The translations under genes were made by a program, and so were the position numbers. The notes under the pieces are model-generated. The model searched no databases. It was given only the letters and a program-made list of their open reading frames with translations, and was not told the DNA's origin. Below, one piece after another: positions 22,090 through 36,612 of a stretch of DNA of 42,396 nucleotides. Source of the DNA: a virus (taxonomy: Duplodnaviria > Heunggongvirae > Uroviricota > Caudoviricetes); IMG/VR virus record IMGVR_UViG_2861064056_000003. One strand, written 5' to 3'. Every line of letters starts with the position of its first letter. The stretch's first letter is position 1.

Positions 22090-22382
22090 CAGATAAACTC
22101 CTCATCGCGCCAGATAGCCAGTGTTCTGAAAACTCCCTCAGCGTGCATCAACAACAATGAGTCGTGCTCGTAATCCGTTTTTGTACGTCCGTCGATGGCA
22201 TCGTGACACGCACTGCAGGCGATAGCGCCCTGCATATCGTGAGGTTTGATGGCTGTGCCGCACGTTCCGGCGAGACGATAATGAGCCAGTACGCTGGTTT
22301 CAGGATTGTGATTGCACACACCGGGGATACGCACAGTACAAGCGCGACTGCGTGCAGCTTTTCTCAGGTCGATTTTTTTCAT
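22089..22382 (-). CDS. YbcO-like protein (DUF1364, predicted nuclease of nin regions)
   Basis: RKAAR.R.C.VRIPGVCN.NPETSVLAH.RL.G.CGT..KP.D...AIACSACHD.ID.R matches recalled E. coli YbcO. Confidence 0.65.
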   Translation of the reverse strand: MKKIDLRKAARSRACTVRIPGVCNHNPETSVLAHYRLAGTCGTAIKPHDMQGAIACSACHDAIDGRTKTDYEHDSLLLMHAEGVFRTLAIWRDEEFI

Positions 22383-22975
22383 GATGTGTAATCCAGCAGC
22401 TGCGCGGCGGCATTTTCAGCGGCCTCCTGAGAGGCAAATGTGCGGAACAAAATATAATTCCACAGCACATCTAAAACGGCTGAATACAGTTGACCGAACT
22501 CAAGATCGTCCATCGCTGCAAACGAGATTGAACGAGGTACGCGCATCAAACTGCCGTCTGGCATCTGATGAACGTCATAAAACCCAGCTTCCATAATCGC
22601 CCATGCGCGAAACGCCTCGAACGACTTCACCGCACTGATACTCCCCGCGCGCTTTTCCGACTCATCGAGAAGATACTGATCAGCCAGCTCTGCCATGACA
22701 TCACCGTGTCCACCGTAATACGCCAGTAACTTAACGTAGCCGTGAACCAGTTCGCGCTCCGCAGGAGAAATAGCCCCTCCGGACGGATGCCAGTAATCAA
22801 AGCCCAGGTTGAGAAGTGAGAAAAATTTACGATGAAACGCGGGATTACGCGCCTGTTTGAAATCTGCATACACAACAGCACCTGGTTTGACTCGTTCAGT
22901 CAACCAGCGTTGCGTGTCTGGTGTCGCGGGTATTAGCGAACCGCCGGATACCCTGATAAATGAATGCTGCGCCAT
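22379..22975 (-). CDS. nin-region protein (DUF1367/YbcN-like)
   Basis: 198 aa directly upstream of the YbcO-like gene with overlapping start; family assignment from memory. Confidence 0.4.
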   Translation of the reverse strand: MAQHSFIRVSGGSLIPATPDTQRWLTERVKPGAVVYADFKQARNPAFHRKFFSLLNLGFDYWHPSGGAISPAERELVHGYVKLLAYYGGHGDVMAELADQYLLDESEKRAGSISAVKSFEAFRAWAIMEAGFYDVHQMPDGSLMRVPRSISFAAMDDLEFGQLYSAVLDVLWNYILFRTFASQEAAENAAAQLLDYTS

Positions 22976-23052
22976 GGTTAACTCCAGGTGGCGCGGCAGT
23001 GTTCAGAAAATGGTGCCGGGTGTTCAATCCAGCACCGATATTATACCGTGTT

Positions 23053-23232
23053 TTACGCGTCAGGGGGTGTAATAGTATATCCAGCTATTTCTGCCAACTC
23101 GAGAAACGCCATCAGGCTGGCAATCCGCTCATCATCGGTCAGAACACGCACACCAACGATGTGTCCGTCCTTACGCTTGATAACAGCCCGGCATGTTTCC
23201 GGTAGTTCGCCTATAGATTCTTGAATATTCAT
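23053..23232 (-). CDS. Small protein (59 aa) downstream of a LexA-box promoter
   Basis: ATG at 23232 preceded by a G-rich RBS; track start at 23253 is TTG and sits inside the LexA box. Confidence 0.4.
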   Translation of the reverse strand: MNIQESIGELPETCRAVIKRKDGHIVGVRVLTDDERIASLMAFLELAEIAGYTITPPDA

Positions 23233-23254
23233 GTCTTCCCCCCAATGCCACAAC

Positions 23255-23270
23255 CTGTATATTTATACAG
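23255..23270. promoter_or_regulatory. LexA (SOS) box CTGTATATTTATACAG
   Basis: Fits CTGT-N8-ACAG with AT-rich spacer; 16/20 match to the recalled consensus taCTGTatatatatACAGta. Confidence 0.6.
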
Positions 23271-23289
23271 TATTTTATGGCATTTGTCA
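23262..23289 (-). promoter_or_regulatory. Sigma70-like promoter overlapping the LexA box
   Basis: Minus strand TGACAA -35, 16-bp spacer, TATAAA -10 lying inside the LexA box. Confidence 0.45.
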
Positions 23290-23383
23290 TAACGCCAAAT
23301 ACAATGAGGGAATAATGAACAATTATATTCACGTCGTGAATTTTATTAAACGGTTTTATAGGGGATTAAACCGTTTATGGTCA

Positions 23384-24025
23384 TTATTTATCACTCCTGT
23401 AAATTGGAATTAACCATTTTCTAATCGTCGACGCTGCAGGTGGGTCAGAGTATTTCGCCACAAAAATACCGGATATGTATTGCACGCCACGCGATAATGG
23501 CGCTGTCGGGTTTTCAGTAAAAAAACGATCAGCCAGTTCAATGGCTTCGCTTTTTAATCTGTGCTGTGGTCGTCCTCCGCCCTTTGTTCCCAGGTATCGC
23601 GCCAGTTGTTTGAAACGGTAGGCGATGATTAACGGTCGCATCATCATATTGAAAAAATCGCGGGCATCGTTGTCAGCGCCTTGCGCTATCAACAGTGCAA
23701 AAAACAGATACGGGATTATGTACACTTCAGGAGATATACGAACCCGTTCACAAGTTGGTGGAGCCAACTCAATAAGTAAGTCAGCCAGCGGATTCCCCTT
23801 TTCTCCACGTTTGTAATAGCGATACAGCGGCCCGATATCAAGTTCACTCACGTCGATTTCAGGATGCCCGGCAACGACTGTACGTATCTCTTCTGCCAGA
23901 GCGTCAAATATTGCCCCGGTCCGTTCAAGATAGAGCCTCCGGGTCGAACCGCGATCATCCAACGCCCGTAACATATCTAACCGGCTAACGAAAGTTTCAG
24001 GCCAGTCCTCATAGAAGGTTTTCAT
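23384..24025 (-). CDS. Hypothetical protein (~213 aa), no recognised family
   Basis: ORF track; start taken at MKTFYEDW with a weak GAGGT RBS; divergent from 24269..24502. Confidence 0.45.
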   Translation of the reverse strand: MKTFYEDWPETFVSRLDMLRALDDRGSTRRLYLERTGAIFDALAEEIRTVVAGHPEIDVSELDIGPLYRYYKRGEKGNPLADLLIELAPPTCERVRISPEVYIIPYLFFALLIAQGADNDARDFFNMMMRPLIIAYRFKQLARYLGTKGGGRPQHRLKSEAIELADRFFTENPTAPLSRGVQYISGIFVAKYSDPPAASTIRKWLIPIYRSDK

Positions 24026-24268
24026 AATTACCTCGAATAATAAAAACTGCACTATTTGCACAATTTATTATTCGTTTTCACGCCGCTGAGTTCTATAAAA
24101 AAGAAAAAACCTCCGAGGCAGGGTTTTGTTATGGCTCGTTAAATCATCATCCAACTTTTTAGACTGAACGGTGATACTTGCAAATATTTGAAAATATGGG
24201 CTGGAACCCTATCTTATGATGTGCCTGGTAATTTATATTGTTGGGTCTTTATATCATGAGGAATCACT

Positions 24269-24900: not shown

Positions 24901-25389
24901 ATGGCTACCAACCCAAGAGAGCACGCCCGGCGAGTGCTGGACACGTTCTGGTGCGGGCGTGGTTTCCCTGTTGATCCAGCGAAAATTGCTCACGACATGG
25001 GATTAGATGTTTTTATTACCGATCTTCCTGGGAAAGTTTCTGGCGCACTGATTAAACAAAAAGATCAAGATCCAGCGATCTTTCTAAACAGTGATGACAA
25101 CAAAGTTCGTCAACGTTTTTCATGTGGGCATGAGTTGGGGCATTACATCGCCCGGCAAGCATCGCATAGCGATGAATATGAGTACGTTGATTTACGTGGC
25201 GAAACCGCAAGCGCCGGAACGCATCCTGATGAAATTTTTGCAAACAAGTTCGCAGCAGAACTTCTGATGCCGGTAGATGAGGTCAGAAAACTGCACGCTG
25301 ACGGTCAACCAAGTTATATAATGGCGCATTATTTTGGCGTATCTGACGATGCGATGACTTATCGTTTAAAGAACTTGAGGTTGGGGTAA
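24901..25389 (+). CDS. ImmA/IrrE-family zinc metallopeptidase (M78-type)
   Basis: RQRFSCGHELGHY signature (HEXXH after RxRF); strong RBS GGAGGAG; 162 aa. Confidence 0.7.
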   Translation: MATNPREHARRVLDTFWCGRGFPVDPAKIAHDMGLDVFITDLPGKVSGALIKQKDQDPAIFLNSDDNKVRQRFSCGHELGHYIARQASHSDEYEYVDLRGETASAGTHPDEIFANKFAAELLMPVDEVRKLHADGQPSYIMAHYFGVSDDAMTYRLKNLRLG

Positions 25390-25398
25390 CGCTTTAAA

Positions 25399-25914
25399 AT
25401 GCCATCGGATGACGATTTTAACAGCCGTTTCAAACAGGAAGTAGCACGCAGACTGAAGGATTCCCTCAACCTACACCGTCAGTTAGCAGAAGAGGTTGAG
25501 CCGGAGGACGATGAAACTCCGGTTCAGTCTCCTGACGAAGCTTCACCTCAGCCAAAGGTTTCGCACGCCCCCAAAAAAACGGCTGTCCGTATTCGCGGAA
25601 TAGCCAGAAAAAGAGCTGCCGAAGCTCGCAAAATGGCTGTAGCTGCGTCTAGCAAAAGAATTCCAACTGCTACACCCTCTCAACAAGTCACCCGTACTGA
25701 GAGTAAAATCTTGACCGAGTTCACATCTGTGAAACAGGTGAATTCACTTGATACCGAGCATGAGCGCAAACAACTCAACAACAAAGATTTTGAAGCAGAA
25801 ATCGCTCTAAAAAAACGATACGGGAAATGGTTCCTGATTATCCTTGCTTTCCAACTTCTGATAATGAATGGTGTATTTATTGCCGACGGCGCAGGTAAGC
25901 TGGAATTTGGGTGA
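25399..25914 (+). CDS. Charged protein with C-terminal TM segment, 3' end interrupted by IS1
   Basis: Start 10 nt after the ImmA-like stop; stop codon supplied by the IS1 end; frame continues in 26686..26780 once IS1 and one TSD copy are removed. Confidence 0.5.
   Translation: MPSDDDFNSRFKQEVARRLKDSLNLHRQLAEEVEPEDDETPVQSPDEASPQPKVSHAPKKTAVRIRGIARKRAAEARKMAVAASSKRIPTATPSQQVTRTESKILTEFTSVKQVNSLDTEHERKQLNNKDFEAEIALKKRYGKWFLIILAFQLLIMNGVFIADGAGKLEFG
25902..25909. repeat. Target-site duplication GGAATTTG, left copy
   Basis: Identical 8-mer immediately flanks both IS1 ends. Confidence 0.75.
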
Positions 25915-29129: not shown

Positions 29130-30053
29130 ATGAGATTAAAATACTCAGTACTCTTACTCGCCATTGCCCTTACAGGCTGTGATAACAAAAAAGATGAGAT
29201 CGGTTGTTCTTCGGAAATAACCCAGTCAGCTCTCATGGATTTATTAAAAAAATCTGCTTATGAAGGACTCTCTGAACAGGTCGATAAATACCCTGATGTC
29301 ACTAATCAGACCAAACGAAGCACACTGGACAAGATCAAACTAGCCATCTCTGAGATCTCCACAACATCAAGTGACACGGGCAGCACAATGAAAACTTGTG
29401 AAGGGACCGTGACGATGACTCTATCTGCGAACGAGTACGTCCAGCTTTCAGATGCTTACAGAAAGAATTTTAATCGTAATCTCGATAAGCAAATGGAAAG
29501 CCTGTTTTTGGAGAACAACGCAAACGCCTTTTCAAAACGTATCACCTACACCGTGCAGGCGACCGACGATCAGAAAAACGTTTTTGTAAAAACCTCTACT
29601 GATAATCCGATATCAGTGGGCGCCGCTTTACTGACATCGCTTTCCATTATCACCCCGATCGTTGAGCAGCAGAAAATCCAGCAGGCTAAGGATGCCCAAC
29701 AGAGTCAAATTGAAGCGGAACAACAGGTGCAACTCAGGGCGCAAGAACAGGCTAAGTATGAGGCGGAGAAGCAAATAGAGAGACAGGCACAACTTCAGCC
29801 GCAAAAAGCTGACAACCTTGATCAGTCCCGAATGGCATTTGCGAATGCCGACTCTGATTTGAGTACCGTCTGGAGCAAGTTAACCCCGGCGAAGAAAAAA
29901 GATTTGCTGCCTTCTCAGCGTCAGTGGATCAAAACTAAGGATGCTATGTGCGGTAAAGTTTCAATGCAGGGAACAGATGCTGAAGTCAAGAAAATGGTCG
30001 ACTGCCAGACGCAAATGACCCTTTCAAGAATCGCTTTCCTCAGAAACCAATAA
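29130..30053 (+). CDS. Lipoprotein with C-terminal DUF1311-like domain (LprI-type lysozyme inhibitor family)
   Basis: Lipobox LTGC after a signal peptide; Q-rich coiled region; C-terminal ..W.KL....K..L...Q..WIK..D..C.. pattern; RBS AAGGGA. Confidence 0.6.
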   Translation: MRLKYSVLLLAIALTGCDNKKDEIGCSSEITQSALMDLLKKSAYEGLSEQVDKYPDVTNQTKRSTLDKIKLAISEISTTSSDTGSTMKTCEGTVTMTLSANEYVQLSDAYRKNFNRNLDKQMESLFLENNANAFSKRITYTVQATDDQKNVFVKTSTDNPISVGAALLTSLSIITPIVEQQKIQQAKDAQQSQIEAEQQVQLRAQEQAKYEAEKQIERQAQLQPQKADNLDQSRMAFANADSDLSTVWSKLTPAKKKDLLPSQRQWIKTKDAMCGKVSMQGTDAEVKKMVDCQTQMTLSRIAFLRNQ

Positions 30054-30067
30054 CTGAAGTCTCCTTC

Positions 30068-30101
30068 AAGCTGGCGCCAGGTGTTAACCTGGTGCCAGCT
30101 T
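30068..30101 (+). terminator. Long imperfect hairpin after the lipoprotein gene
   Basis: AAGCTGGCGCCAGG-tgttaa-CCTGGTGCCAGCTT, 14-bp stem with one mismatch; no clear U-tract. Confidence 0.35.
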
Positions 30102-30131
30102 AGTCATCAAGTGCATATGTAACTGTTTTAT

Positions 30132-30227: not shown

Positions 30228-31046
30228 TCAAAATGCTGAATTAGCAACGGATATAGCCGACTTTTTCCCCATTACCATCAATTTATCCAGTGTCATACTT
30301 CGCAGATTGTCGCTGTGGATCACCAGATACCCTGCCCGCTCAGCGATCTCTTTGAAAGCGTCAAAGGTCATCAGATGTTCGCCTTTGGCAACATGGCGCA
30401 TCCCGGTCACTTTTCCATTTTTGATAGTGGTGATAAAAGAAAAATCTGGAATGGTTGGGTGATTTTCATCGAGTAGCAGGCAGTGGATGTATTCAATCGC
30501 CTCTAACATTTGCGTCTGTGACAGTTGTTCTATGTGAGAGACGGCGAAGCGTTGATGAATCATGGTGTAGGCATCGGGATACATCATGCCTTTCTTGCCG
30601 ACCAGTATATTAACGGCATCACGCAAGGGAGTACGGTCATCGGTAGTTGTACTCCGCCTCTCTGGACGCTGGCTAAAATAACAATCTTCCAGCTTTTCGA
30701 AAACTTCCCAGGCCTGTTCTGTTTCCAGCATTTTGGCATGGCGAGCTGCGCCGCGTTCTGTCCAGAGAATGAGGGATCGGGTATGTTTAGCAACTGACTG
30801 ACTATCTGTCAGTCTGTTTTTGAAGTCGCGTAATTCATTACCTTCCAGCTTAAAAAAATGCTTTCCTACGACAAATCTGGCGATGTTGCGCTTGAAGTTT
30901 TGCTGGATACCATTTACTTCCGTGCCATACAAACTGGCAAGCAATTCAGTAGTGATGACGGGAAGTTGGTTATGATGTAGCGGAGAAAGGGATTCCGCAG
31001 ATATTTGGACTGTCATCGCAGTGGCCTCACTTAGTGTTTTTTTCAT
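30228..31046 (-). CDS. Putative phage antirepressor (Ant-like, KilA-N/ORF6N-type N-terminus)
   Basis: 272 aa; N-terminal region resembles antirepressor DNA-binding domains (memory-based); start taken at ATG 31046. Confidence 0.45.
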   Translation of the reverse strand: MKKTLSEATAMTVQISAESLSPLHHNQLPVITTELLASLYGTEVNGIQQNFKRNIARFVVGKHFFKLEGNELRDFKNRLTDSQSVAKHTRSLILWTERGAARHAKMLETEQAWEVFEKLEDCYFSQRPERRSTTTDDRTPLRDAVNILVGKKGMMYPDAYTMIHQRFAVSHIEQLSQTQMLEAIEYIHCLLLDENHPTIPDFSFITTIKNGKVTGMRHVAKGEHLMTFDAFKEIAERAGYLVIHSDNLRSMTLDKLMVMGKKSAISVANSAF

Positions 31047-31077
31047 CACCACCAGCGACGCCAATCATCTGGTGGTG
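31047..31077 (-). promoter_or_regulatory. RNA hairpin abutting the ant start codon
   Basis: Perfect 9-bp inverted repeat CACCACCAG-N13-CTGGTGGTG; on the mRNA the 3' arm ends directly at the AUG and covers the SD-like GGUGGUG. Confidence 0.4.
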
Positions 31078-31177
31078 AGCTGTGCAGGGTTGGCGTAACC
31101 GGCTAAGTGAACCCGGCGCTTCCACAGAAGCCCCCACACAGCCCACCATAATGCGAATGTGGCCGTGCCTAACACAT

Positions 31178-31197
31178 AAAAAAACCGCTAACGCGGC
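31178..31197 (-). terminator. Weak terminator between the nin genes and ant
   Basis: Minus strand CCGCGTTAGCGG hairpin followed by TTTTTTT. Confidence 0.3.
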
Positions 31198-31288
31198 TAT
31201 GCGTCACTTAGATATCCGGGACGCCAATCCCGGCAACCGATTTTGCGGCTGCGCGGAAACTATAGCCCCGGACTTTTTCTAAGTCAAT

Positions 31289-32913: not shown

Positions 32914-34356
32914 TTAAAATTCATTTGTGCGAGAATTATCGCTACGGGAATAACGTTTATTTTTTTCTGAGCGGTCGTTGGTAAGGCGATAAACCTCCTC
33001 ATCGCTGATATCAATAACTGAGCCATTTTTCATCAGGGCATAGGCTGTTCCCGATGGTCCTTCGCGGTTCAGACGTAGCAACATTTCCATGAGATTTGGG
33101 TCGGCATTTTCGTTATAAACAGCATCACGATAGAGGCCAATCCAGACATCGCAATCTTGTTCGATCTGCCCGGTATCTTTACTGTCGCTCGGGTTAGGCC
33201 GCTTATCGGCACGTTCTTCAAGCTTTCGGTTGAGTTGCGTCAGCAGGACCACAACACAATCCAGCTCTTTTGCCAGGTTCTTCAAACCGGTTGTGATATC
33301 GCCATACGCAATATCCCTACGCTCTGCCGATTCGGTCTTCATCAGCGTCAAATAGTCAATTGCCACCAGGCCAACCGAGCCACGCATCCGTTTAACTTTT
33401 CGACATTCAGCGACAATATGCGCAAGGGTTACACCTGCCGTGCTGTCAATCATCATGTTGGATTCGGCAATCTCCCCCGCCTTTGCTATTGCGAGACTCA
33501 ATTCAGATTCATCGTTAGGGCCAAGATAAAAAATCTCCGAATTGACCTTTGCTTCCTGCGCAACCATGCGTTCAATGAGACTTCTGTCAGTCATTTCCAG
33601 GCTAAATACCAGCGTCGGCAAACGATGATTCAGAGCAAAATGCACCGCAATTTTATTAAACGCGGCTGTCTTGCCCATTTTTGGCCGGGCACCAATAACG
33701 ACCAATGAACCTCTTAACGCCTGCTTTGGTGCCATTAAGCGATCAAGGCTTTCGATTCCGAGCGTTAGTCCGGCTGCATGTGCTGGATCATTGAAACGGC
33801 GCTCAAGGTCATCTATCCAGTCATCGACGACTTCACTTGCCGGACGCAAACCGCCCTTATGCCCGGTACGGGAATGTTCGGCCACCTGCCCAATCACTTG
33901 CTGAACGGCGGTGATCCTGTCAGTAGCAGTCATATCTGCAGGCTGGATCATAATCTCCAGACAAGAATTCAACTTTTCCACGGCATAACGAAGAATGGCT
34001 TTTTCACGTACAATTTTCGCGTAGTTGACCATTGAGGCCGGAATCGCCGCCTTACTCATTTCAGCCAGGTATGCGAATCCCCCCACGCGCTCATACAGCC
34101 CCTTCGATTCCATCAGTTCGGTCAGTGTTATCAGGTCAGTTGGTTTATCAGCTTGAAATAATCCTTTGATCTCCCGGTAGATAACCTGATGCGCATTGAT
34201 ATAAAACGTTTCCGGTTTCAGTAACGCAAATACCGCATTGGTTCTGTCGTGGTCGGTATTCAGCATCAGACAGCCCAGAACAGCCTGTTCTGCGTCAACG
34301 CTGTACAGTGCAATCGCGTTATTTATCATTTGCGCGTTCTTCCTTGACCGAAACAT
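32914..34356 (-). CDS. Replicative DNA helicase, DnaB family (P22 gene 12-like)
   Basis: AEQAVLGCLML, Walker A GARPKMGKT, LNRKLEERADKRPNPSDSKDTGQIEQD..YRD.VYNEN match recalled E. coli DnaB. Confidence 0.85.
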   Translation of the reverse strand: MFRSRKNAQMINNAIALYSVDAEQAVLGCLMLNTDHDRTNAVFALLKPETFYINAHQVIYREIKGLFQADKPTDLITLTELMESKGLYERVGGFAYLAEMSKAAIPASMVNYAKIVREKAILRYAVEKLNSCLEIMIQPADMTATDRITAVQQVIGQVAEHSRTGHKGGLRPASEVVDDWIDDLERRFNDPAHAAGLTLGIESLDRLMAPKQALRGSLVVIGARPKMGKTAAFNKIAVHFALNHRLPTLVFSLEMTDRSLIERMVAQEAKVNSEIFYLGPNDESELSLAIAKAGEIAESNMMIDSTAGVTLAHIVAECRKVKRMRGSVGLVAIDYLTLMKTESAERRDIAYGDITTGLKNLAKELDCVVVLLTQLNRKLEERADKRPNPSDSKDTGQIEQDCDVWIGLYRDAVYNENADPNLMEMLLRLNREGPSGTAYALMKNGSVIDISDEEVYRLTNDRSEKNKRYSRSDNSRTNEF

Positions 34357-36198: not shown

Positions 36199-36612
36199 AT
36201 GAACACAAAAACGAAAAACATGGCTTTTGCTAGCCGACTACAACGGATTCTAAAAGACTTAGGCTGGTCTCAATCTGAGTTAGCTCGCCATATTGGGGTT
36301 ACGGCTCAATCAGTTCAGGCATGGTGTAATGGGGTAACTCCAAGAAAAGATAAATTAGACAAGCTAGCAAAAGTGACCGGATACCCTGTTCATTTTTTCT
36401 TCATGAATGAAGGGGAATATTTGGATGAATCCACACTACACCCGGGTAATTACAATCAAGAACTAACCCCGCAAGAACAGGCTCTACTGCAACTATTCAG
36501 AGGACTGCCTGAGAGCGAAAAAAATAAATTAATCAATGAGCTAAAAGAAAAAAGAGAGCACTTCGATCTACTGCTAAAAGAACTACTTGAAGCCAAAAAC
36601 CAGACAAAATAG
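36199..36612 (+). CDS. DicA-like HTH repressor without a peptidase domain
   Basis: XRE-type HTH (QSELARHIGVTAQSVQAW) plus C-terminal LTPQEQALLQLFRGLPESEKNKLINELKEKREHFDLLLKELLEAKNQTK resembling the recalled E. coli DicA C-terminus; no SD before the ATG. Confidence 0.7.
   Translation: MNTKTKNMAFASRLQRILKDLGWSQSELARHIGVTAQSVQAWCNGVTPRKDKLDKLAKVTGYPVHFFFMNEGEYLDESTLHPGNYNQELTPQEQALLQLFRGLPESEKNKLINELKEKREHFDLLLKELLEAKNQTK

Follow-up and report, generated by a model that had tools for sequence, protein, structure and literature searches.

The closest described counterparts of the locus analyzed here are found in phages P1 and P7 and in the Salmonella prophage Gifsy-1. In the immI region of P1 and P7, the C4 RNA is initially part of a longer transcript, out of which RNase P matures it (Hartmann 1995, as summarised in PMC5320573). 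According to the P1 annotation, the sites a1 (UUUGACA) and b1 (UGUUAGUG) lie upstream of C4, a2 follows 3 nt after it and b2 (GUUAGUGA) covers the Shine-Dalgarno sequence (SD) of icd. In the isrK-orf45-anrP region of Gifsy-1 (Hershko-Shalev et al. 2016, PMC4825925), IsrK activates the translation of AnrP, the expression of which induces Gifsy-1, and peptides of the orf45 type are variable. Northern blots of Gifsy-1 display species of ~180 nt and ~80 nt, both originating from the read-through transcript (PMC4825925, S3 legend), and the CI RNA of P4 is cited as a structural analogue by the same authors (PMC4825925). The term 'c4 antisense' has 0 occurrences in the text of PMC4825925 and a 2025 review lists IsrK and c4 separately; a genome paper on APSE phages notes the co-occurrence of the two Rfam families. 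The present work concerns a 42,396-nucleotide stretch of Caudoviricetes DNA (IMG/VR virus record IMGVR_UViG_2861064056_000003), hereafter the window, and in particular the leader of its antirepressor-like gene, ant, which is read on the minus strand. A preliminary description of the sequence had pointed out a hairpin in this leader. We conclude, with a probability of about 0.85, that this hairpin represents the a2 stem-loop within an immI module of the P1/P7 type, in its IsrK-C4 variant, preceding an AnrP-like ORF6N antirepressor gene in an Escherichia coli lambdoid prophage.

RNA module and start codon of ant

The scan of the window against Rfam returned three matches above the gathering threshold (GA), namely isrK, c4-a1b1 and the C4 antisense RNA, all located on the same strand as ant and directly upstream of it (Table 1). 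The sigma-70-like promoter of this leader matches the isrK promoter of Gifsy-1 both in position and in -10 context, the transcription start of the latter being inferred from the A107 numbering in PMC4825925. The promoter scan revealed no second promoter between the isrK terminator and the ant ATG. As is characteristic of isrK, the IsrK-like leader RNA contains two 5' hairpins and an intrinsic terminator (31198..31178). It carries two decoy sites, a1 (UUGGCGU, 31227..31221), exposed in a hairpin loop, and b1 (CUAAGUGA, 31211..31204).

Alignment to the annotated 77-nt C4 of P1 was used to infer the ends of the predicted mature C4 (31147..31071, 77 nt), the 3' end of which lies 54 nt from the ant ATG at 31016. 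The terminal stem of C4 comprises 17 standard pairs (UGGUGGGCUGUGUGGGG/CCCUGCACAGCUCACCA) and ends at A31073, after which comes CCA. Features of the processing type are present at both extremities, with G31147 followed by G and U at the predicted 5' end and a tRNA-like A-CCA tail at 31073..31070. The C4 segment a' (ACGCCAA, 31096..31090) is complementary over 7 bp to the UUGGCGU sequence of both a1 and a2 (31064..31058), and the C4 loop b' (UUCACUUAG, 31111..31103) is complementary over 8-9 bp to b1 and b2. As in P1, where b2 lies over a ribosome-binding site, the b2 target of the window overlaps an SD (GAGG, 31028..31025), which stands 8 nt before ATG 31016. To collect related loci, viral contigs were searched by pattern for C4 RNAs sharing this a'; the 120 loci obtained were reduced to 105 unique C4-plus-flank segments. 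A looser pattern scan of genome contigs was set aside, the matches listed coming from unrelated bacterial phyla and looking like chance. The 105 unique loci display a large variety of b' loops; in every one of them, b2 is complementary to the C4 loop, and its end usually stands ~6-11 nt before the downstream ATG (9 nt before 31016 in the window). The locus is therefore considered, with high confidence, to be a C4/IsrK-type immunity module controlling an AnrP-like antirepressor.

The hairpin itself was found exactly as it had been described, as a perfect 9-bp stem closing a 13-nt loop on the minus strand at 31077..31047, with CACCACCAG as 5' arm (31077..31069), AUGAUUGGCGUCG as loop (31068..31056) and CUGGUGGUG as 3' arm (31055..31047). 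The stem is extended by a tenth pair, U31078-A31046. The loop contains the a2 sequence, and the suggestion that the structure could be the target of a regulatory RNA is borne out in this respect, since a C4 antisense RNA is encoded 5 nt upstream and the loop provides its a2 site. The 5' arm is made of the last 4-6 paired nucleotides of C4, its ACCA tail and one further nucleotide, and the Rfam match to C4 ends within this arm. The a2 stem-loop lies outside the Rfam C4 model, and no Rfam family matched it in the scan of the window. Folding of the local region with RNAfold yields the hairpin, with about -19 kcal/mol for the 46-nt segment. Perfect hairpins of at least 9 bp are not rare in the window (18 raw hits, ~11 distinct, versus 3.4 +/- 2.5 in dinucleotide shuffles), so that the stem is not significant on its own and its conservation carries the weight. 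With this conservation, detailed below, the hairpin is identified with high confidence as the a2 stem-loop of the C4/IsrK-type module.

The antirepressor assignment made in the preliminary description held upon similarity searches. The Ant protein matches Pfam ORF6N (PF10543, KilA-N-like) at 1e-21 and, over its full length, the PHROG family phrog_4792 'anti-repressor' at 2.7e-163; it shares 66% identity with Gifsy-1 AnrP (STM2616) across the N-terminal 137 aa (E 4e-63). The same description had placed the start codon of ant inside the hairpin, at an ATG abutting the 3' arm. The start in use is located 30 nt further downstream, at ATG 31016. This is where the RefSeq protein starts and where a GAGG-N8-ATG context is found. 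Homologous antirepressors begin with MTTQISVETLSP..., matching the MTVQISAESLSP... read from 31016 in the window (homologue N-termini, MTTQIS...), and the full-length PHROG profile aligns from residue 1 of the protein starting there. Considering also the position of b2, it is concluded with high confidence that ant starts at ATG 31016 with its SD under b2.

Table 1. Coordinates of the features of the ant locus in the window (bit scores are those of Rfam; aa, amino acids)
Feature	Position	Strand	Remarks
Sigma-70-like promoter TTGACT-17-TATAGT	31259..31287	-	10/12 match; predicted +1 at G31252
c4-a1b1	31265..31213	-	52.9 bits (GA 46.7)
isrK Hfq-binding RNA (RF01394)	31252..31178	-	80.4 bits (GA 50)
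C4 antisense RNA (RF01695)	31153..31068	-	75.2 bits (GA 45); full-length match, 1-87
orf40	31027..31149	-	Starts at AUG in C4 5' strand and runs through the hairpin; analogue of Gifsy-1 orf45
a2 stem-loop (H2), the hairpin of the preliminary description	31046..31078	-	5' arm 31078..31069; 3' arm 31055..31046
ATG abutting the 3' arm	31044..31046	-	In frame with ant; probably not a start
b2 target CUAAGUGAG	31034..31026	-	9-bp complementarity to C4 loop b'; includes CUAAGUGA at 31034..31027, followed by G
3' strand of the third helix (H3), GCCACUGCGAUGACAGUC	31008..31025	-	Predicted pairing with a2 and the 3' arm; includes the true AUG
Antirepressor-like gene ant (262 aa)	30228..31016	-	N-terminal ORF6N; C-terminal residues 197-238 match phrog_340

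Conservation of the a2 stem-loop and competing helices

The identities, complementarities, conservation and covariation reported here were read directly from the sequences. The hairpin was recovered in 71/71 distinct segments of the related loci as a two-tier fold presenting UUGGCG in a 6-nt loop. The pairing energy of the 5' arms averaged -16.6 kcal/mol with their own 3' arms, -12.2 kcal/mol when the 3' arms were swapped between loci and -6.3 kcal/mol with shuffled arms. In a MAFFT alignment of 53 sequences including P1, the 13 pairs of the window structure are formed in 79.1% of the cells versus 67.8% in column shuffles (0/500), and the covariation score of the hairpin reaches 0.336, as compared to 0.169 in shuffles and at most 0.146 with slid partners. 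Changes on both sides occur in 11 of the 13 pairs. G-U pairs are present, in keeping with a sense-strand RNA structure and not with a palindrome of the DNA. When RNAalifold was applied to the plain MAFFT alignment, the inner 4 bp only were recovered, as differences in loop length shift the outer stems out of register; the pairs were for this reason counted on the structure of the window itself and complemented with the alignment-free arm-swap comparison.

The same hairpin was observed in a second specificity class, defined by a' AUGCCAA and a2 UUGGCAU, where it is present in 12/12 genuine loci; 20 segments had been retrieved, from which 8 chance matches devoid of C4 were excluded. The P1 hairpin has quite different arms (CCUGCCACC...GGGUAGCAGG) and folds with -18.2 kcal/mol. 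Judged by these sequence comparisons, the a2 stem-loop is a conserved structural element of C4 modules. Several purposes of the stem may be envisaged, including the presentation of a2 in a loop as is the case for a1, the timing of C4 maturation and a role of anti-sequestor for the start region.

The 3' strand of C4 takes part in two helices, the C4 terminal stem (H1) and the a2 hairpin (H2), which share 5-11 nt (median 8) in all 105 loci and are mutually exclusive. This strand covaries with both of its partners, in a triple manner: UCACCA is found with GGUGGU/AGUGGU, UCGCCA with GGCGGU/AGCGGU and CUGCCC with GGCGGG/GACGGG. Since the 5' arm of the hairpin is the 3' end of C4, the hairpin is possible only in the unprocessed transcript.

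A third helix (H3) is predicted between the a2 region with its 3' arm and the translation start of ant. In the window, once the C4 part is removed, H3 pairs 31066..31048 with 31025..31008 at -21.4 kcal/mol (z -2.96, 0/200 shuffles). In models of the related leaders from which C4 was omitted, 71/81 loci have 5 or more of the 10 nucleotides of the SD region paired to a2 or the 3' arm (mean z -2.4). Among 18 representatives with unrelated initiation regions, duplexes between each arm and its own translation-initiation region average -18.9 kcal/mol versus -15.8 +/- 0.66 kcal/mol for permuted partners (0/5000); in the enteric subset, of similar GC content, the corresponding values are -19.6 versus -16.5 +/- 0.72 (0/20000). 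In P1 and Gifsy-1, H3 is weaker or takes a different form (z -1.4 and -1.5, respectively). In these folding models, the third helix suggests an attenuator-like arrangement. As a separate observation, part of the a2 sequence UUGGCGUC recurs, as GGCGUC, in the spacers between SD and AUG of VT2-Sakai (1700..1775) and Gifsy-1 (34065..34133), where it may offer C4 a' an additional contact or belong to the alternative helix with a2.

Proposed mechanism and competing explanations

The mechanism proposed for the locus can be briefly summarized as follows. The single promoter would give rise both to the short, terminated IsrK-like RNA carrying a1 and b1 and to a read-through transcript including C4, the hairpin and ant. 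If P1 is taken as a guide, RNase P would cleave at G31147 to free C4 from the read-through transcript, the 17-bp stem and ACCA tail of C4 mimicking the acceptor end of a tRNA. The a' segment of the released C4 would pair with a2 in the hairpin loop and its b' loop with b2 over the real SD of ant; this SD being covered, translation would therefore be blocked. The IsrK-like RNA, with its identical a1 and b1, would counteract this repression, as shown for Gifsy-1. The 3' arm of the hairpin may alternatively pair with the true translation start. RNase P processing, the block of translation by C4, the counteraction by the IsrK-like RNA and any switching are inferred from P1 and Gifsy-1.

A number of points weigh against this reading. 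Every mechanistic step at this locus draws on homology. The compared loci are related, and the shuffle and permutation counts overstate their independence. The minimum free energy fold of the whole leader does not contain the hairpin, the 17-bp C4 stem prevailing, and if the excision of C4 proceeds as in P1 and Gifsy-1, the 5' arm is removed along with it; any role of the stem, as distinct from the a2 loop sequence, is therefore putative. No icd is present between C4 and ant, unlike in P1, and Ant is unrelated to P1 Ant1. The Gifsy-1 authors explain the activation by pairing of IsrK to the mRNA and not by titration of a C4-like repressor (PMC4825925), and free C4 is not known to repress in IsrK-type loci.

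The mechanism can be extended, without being replaced, by a switch in which four segments exchange partners: the C4 5' strand (1), the C4 3' strand with ACCA (2), a2 with the 3' arm (3) and the translation-initiation region of ant (4). Pairing of 1:2 and 3:4 would correspond to an OFF state with a folded, processable C4 and a sequestered start, and pairing of 2:3 to an ON state where the ant start and the orf40 AUG are freed, the hairpin acting as anti-sequestor. The overlap of H1 and H2 in all loci with its triple covariation, the frequent pairing of the SD region with a2 or the 3' arm, the advantage of own duplexes over permuted ones and the stability of the window H3, which covers AUG 31016, are all in favor of such a switch, as is the long transcript of Gifsy-1, which is translationally silent and adopts two alternative structures (PMC4825925). 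The argument is nevertheless thermodynamic and comparative throughout, H3 was assessed by folding and by comparison of duplex energies and is weaker or of a different form in P1 and Gifsy-1, and neighbouring segments may simply share composition. In addition, the 17-bp H1 is far more stable than H2, which may form rarely. The switch is hence put forward tentatively, the odds being somewhat against it.

It is rather improbable that the hairpin is instead a processing signal, marking the cut at the C4 3' end (for example as a determinant for RNase III or RNase E) or masking the ACCA sequence in order to time RNase P. The predicted C4 3' end at 31071, placed by analogy with the 77-nt C4 of P1, falls inside the 5' arm and the ACCA tail is base-paired in the hairpin; the ~180-nt and ~80-nt species of Gifsy-1 fit a cleavage at the C4 ends, i.e. 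within the 5' arm. For a substrate of RNase III, however, the two-tier stem is short and not continuous, and this explanation does not account for the constant position of a2 in the loop.

In the preliminary description, the hairpin was considered to hide an SD-like GGUGGUG together with the ATG at 31046, and to provide a built-in translational repression of the antirepressor. The hairpin is real and its 3' arm does end at an in-frame ATG, but this explanation has become very improbable. GGUGGUG is unfit as the SD of that ATG because the spacing, of 0-2 nt, is too short, and the SD of the gene is the GAGG at 31028..31025. The RefSeq, homologue and PHROG starts all point to 31016. Of 102 related loci, 18 have an ATG where the 3' arm ends, and in 6 only is it in frame and open to the real start; the conserved b2 lies over the SD of 31016 and not of 31046. 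The hairpin is thus not in itself a structure that occludes SD and AUG, the 5' arm belongs to C4 and the hairpin is absent from the fold of the whole leader. Least probable of all, and already largely refuted, is that the perfect, palindrome-like repeat, situated in an intergenic leader and inside orf40, would serve as the DNA operator of a dimeric protein, act as a transcription terminator or simply result from coding constraint on orf40, as the arms covary instead of keeping their sequence, the G-U pairs are valid on the sense RNA only, and the orf40/orf45 frame and peptide are not conserved, the VT2-Sakai open reading frame (ORF) stopping within the arm. The terminator variant was rejected: no U-tract is present on either strand, and the terminator scan did not report the hairpin.

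The stop codon of orf40 (UGA, 31029..31027) falls inside the ant SD. This ORF may, by analogy, take the coupling role played by orf45 in Gifsy-1. In 77/98 loci, an equivalent ORF starting from an AUG in the C4 5' strand is open to a point at most 25 nt from the downstream start, or beyond it. Such openness agrees with the translational coupling demonstrated for orf45-anrP, although the compared loci are related; it could reflect functional coupling or the mere scarcity of stop codons in structured GC-rich RNA. In phage Ayreon, the entire isrK-C4 region is annotated as a single coding sequence, 'immunity region'.

Prophage context and comparison with known systems

The window corresponds to an E. 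coli lambdoid prophage integrated beside a tRNA-Leu gene. The 1.3-kb region of the ant locus was found in 492/5426 complete E. coli genomes, and the RefSeq annotation fetched around ant displays coding sequence features only, with no isrK or C4 RNA. A control of ant by LexA was rejected, the sole CTGT-N8-ACAG site of the window being located at 23255, ~7.7 kb away. This near-consensus LexA box (CTGTATATTTATACAG, 23255..23270) lies just upstream of a 59-aa ORF (MNIQESIGELPETCRAV..., region 23053..23270, minus strand), which matches phrog_340, a family of unknown function, at 1.6e-20. Residues 197-238 of Ant match the same family at 4.2e-12, and the two segments share 37% identity over 38 aa (E 4e-07). 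The prophage may accordingly carry two antirepressors with a shared module, one under SOS control and the other under RNA control. The similarity of the small ORF to the putative GfoA ORF of Gifsy-1 was not significant. The preliminary description had remarked that a second induction route would be unusual; a precedent exists in Gifsy-1, which combines the LexA-controlled GfoA (PMC3121763) with the IsrK-controlled AnrP (PMC4825925).

These elements can be joined into a broader reading, speculative and on balance unlikely, where the hairpin is the middle helix of a three-helix switch conserved in all C4-type immunity modules, and where the prophage also has two ways of delivering one and the same putative repressor-binding module (phrog_340), the LexA-controlled 59-aa protein on the one hand and a fusion to the RNA-controlled ORF6N antirepressor on the other. 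If this were true, the C4 3' end with its ACCA would pair either with the C4 5' strand, in a tRNA-like form that can be processed by RNase P with release of the repressor RNA, or with the arm downstream of a2, which would otherwise be paired to the true start of the antirepressor. The maturation of the repressor RNA would then be coupled to the accessibility of the repressed gene, and the P1 model in which C4 represses would be reconciled with the Gifsy-1 model in which IsrK activates.

Several other features of the prophage were recorded. A putative prophage repressor of 130 aa (36220..36612, plus strand) matches HTH_3 and other helix-turn-helix families and has no Peptidase_S24 match in Pfam (E<=0.01), which fits a Gifsy-type scheme of inactivation by antirepressors rather than by cleavage (PMC3121763). 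A long inverted repeat (AAGCUGGCGCCAGG...CCUGGUGCCAGCUU, 30060..30105) separates the gene of an LprI-family lipoprotein (29130..30053, plus strand) from the ant stop codon and is possibly a bidirectional terminator between convergent genes. Upon mapping to E. coli SK1144, in which the ant locus is 100% identical, the DUF1367 gene is displaced by ~780 bp from its place in the window (22379..22975), and an indel is therefore deduced between ant and the Q region (window ~22379..24061). The SK1144 prophage contains at 25236..25724, between the ant module and Q and on the opposite strand, an ImmA/IrrE-family metallopeptidase gene and a small neighbour, which may be another repressor-inactivation or defence module of the same prophage.

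The C4/IsrK system is itself already known, and the locus of the window adds one more case to it; should the switch prove not to be real, one more correctly identified C4/IsrK module would remain. The RNA layer is missing from the RefSeq annotation of a prophage locus with the distribution given above. The comparison joins the literature on P1 C4 immunity and that on the Salmonella dual-function small RNA IsrK, which are treated separately in the papers compared. The covarying a2 stem-loop, its overlap with the C4 stem and the complementarity to the start region provide a testable model of how an antirepressor can be kept silent and yet be inducible without SOS.

The immI region of P1 and P7 (c4, icd, ant1/ant2) shares with the window the same Rfam C4 family and the same order of promoter, a1/b1, C4, a2, b2 over an SD and antirepressor. 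Common to both are the 77-nt C4 with its tRNA-like end and a hairpin that displays a2 in its loop and takes its 5' arm from the C4 3' end. The window differs from P1 by the lack of icd, a gene that in P1 must be translated for ant to be transcribed (best tblastn E 0.57 for a P1 Icd homologue in the window, not significant), so that b2 is placed directly on the ant SD, and by its Ant, which has no significant similarity to P1 Ant1. The intrinsic terminator after a1/b1 also makes a separate short RNA of the IsrK type in the window, and P1 is a plasmid prophage whereas the window is a chromosomal lambdoid prophage.

Gifsy-1 is similar in its a' class (ACGCCAA/UUGGCGU), in the presence of IsrK, C4 (STnc1160/orf45') and the hairpin, in its ORF6N antirepressor and in an upstream ORF starting in the C4 5' strand. 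When the Gifsy-1 locus was reconstructed, the published mutations G28A/G31A and C162U/C159U (PMC4825925) mapped exactly onto a1:a' pairs. The published structural analysis covered nt 1-180 (PMC4825925), and nt 180 falls just before the hairpin by coordinate mapping. The two loci differ in b'/b2 specificity, b' being UCGGUGAU in Gifsy-1 and UUCACUUAG in the window. Gifsy-1 orf45 ends in AUGA overlapping the anrP start, whereas orf40 stops 10 nt before the ant AUG. The C-terminal part of the window Ant is different, with its phrog_340 segment, and the module, which directly follows Q in Gifsy-1, is situated in the window between the replication genes and Q.

The P4 CI RNA with seqA/seqC (Rfam clan CL00128) is likewise a processed antisense RNA, with copies of its target on both sides of it in one transcript. 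It differs in that it causes premature transcription termination of replication genes and not SD occlusion of an antirepressor, and its family was not detected by Rfam in the window. In the immI region of P22 (sar, Mnt/Arc, ant), silencing of the antirepressor depends in part on a small antisense RNA that targets its ribosome-binding site. The sar RNA is a true cis-antisense RNA from the opposite strand, devoid of a C4-like fold and not processed from the sense transcript.

The likeness to the helices of attenuators (1:2/3:4 versus 2:3) resides in three mutually exclusive, strand-sharing helices, the middle one being an anti-sequestor, and is a resemblance in possible working. Nothing but this conserved arrangement of three helices may be new, and the a2 hairpin may already be drawn in the original P1 papers. 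In contrast to attenuators, the output of the switching predicted by the folding models would be access to the translation start and maturation of a small RNA rather than termination of transcription.

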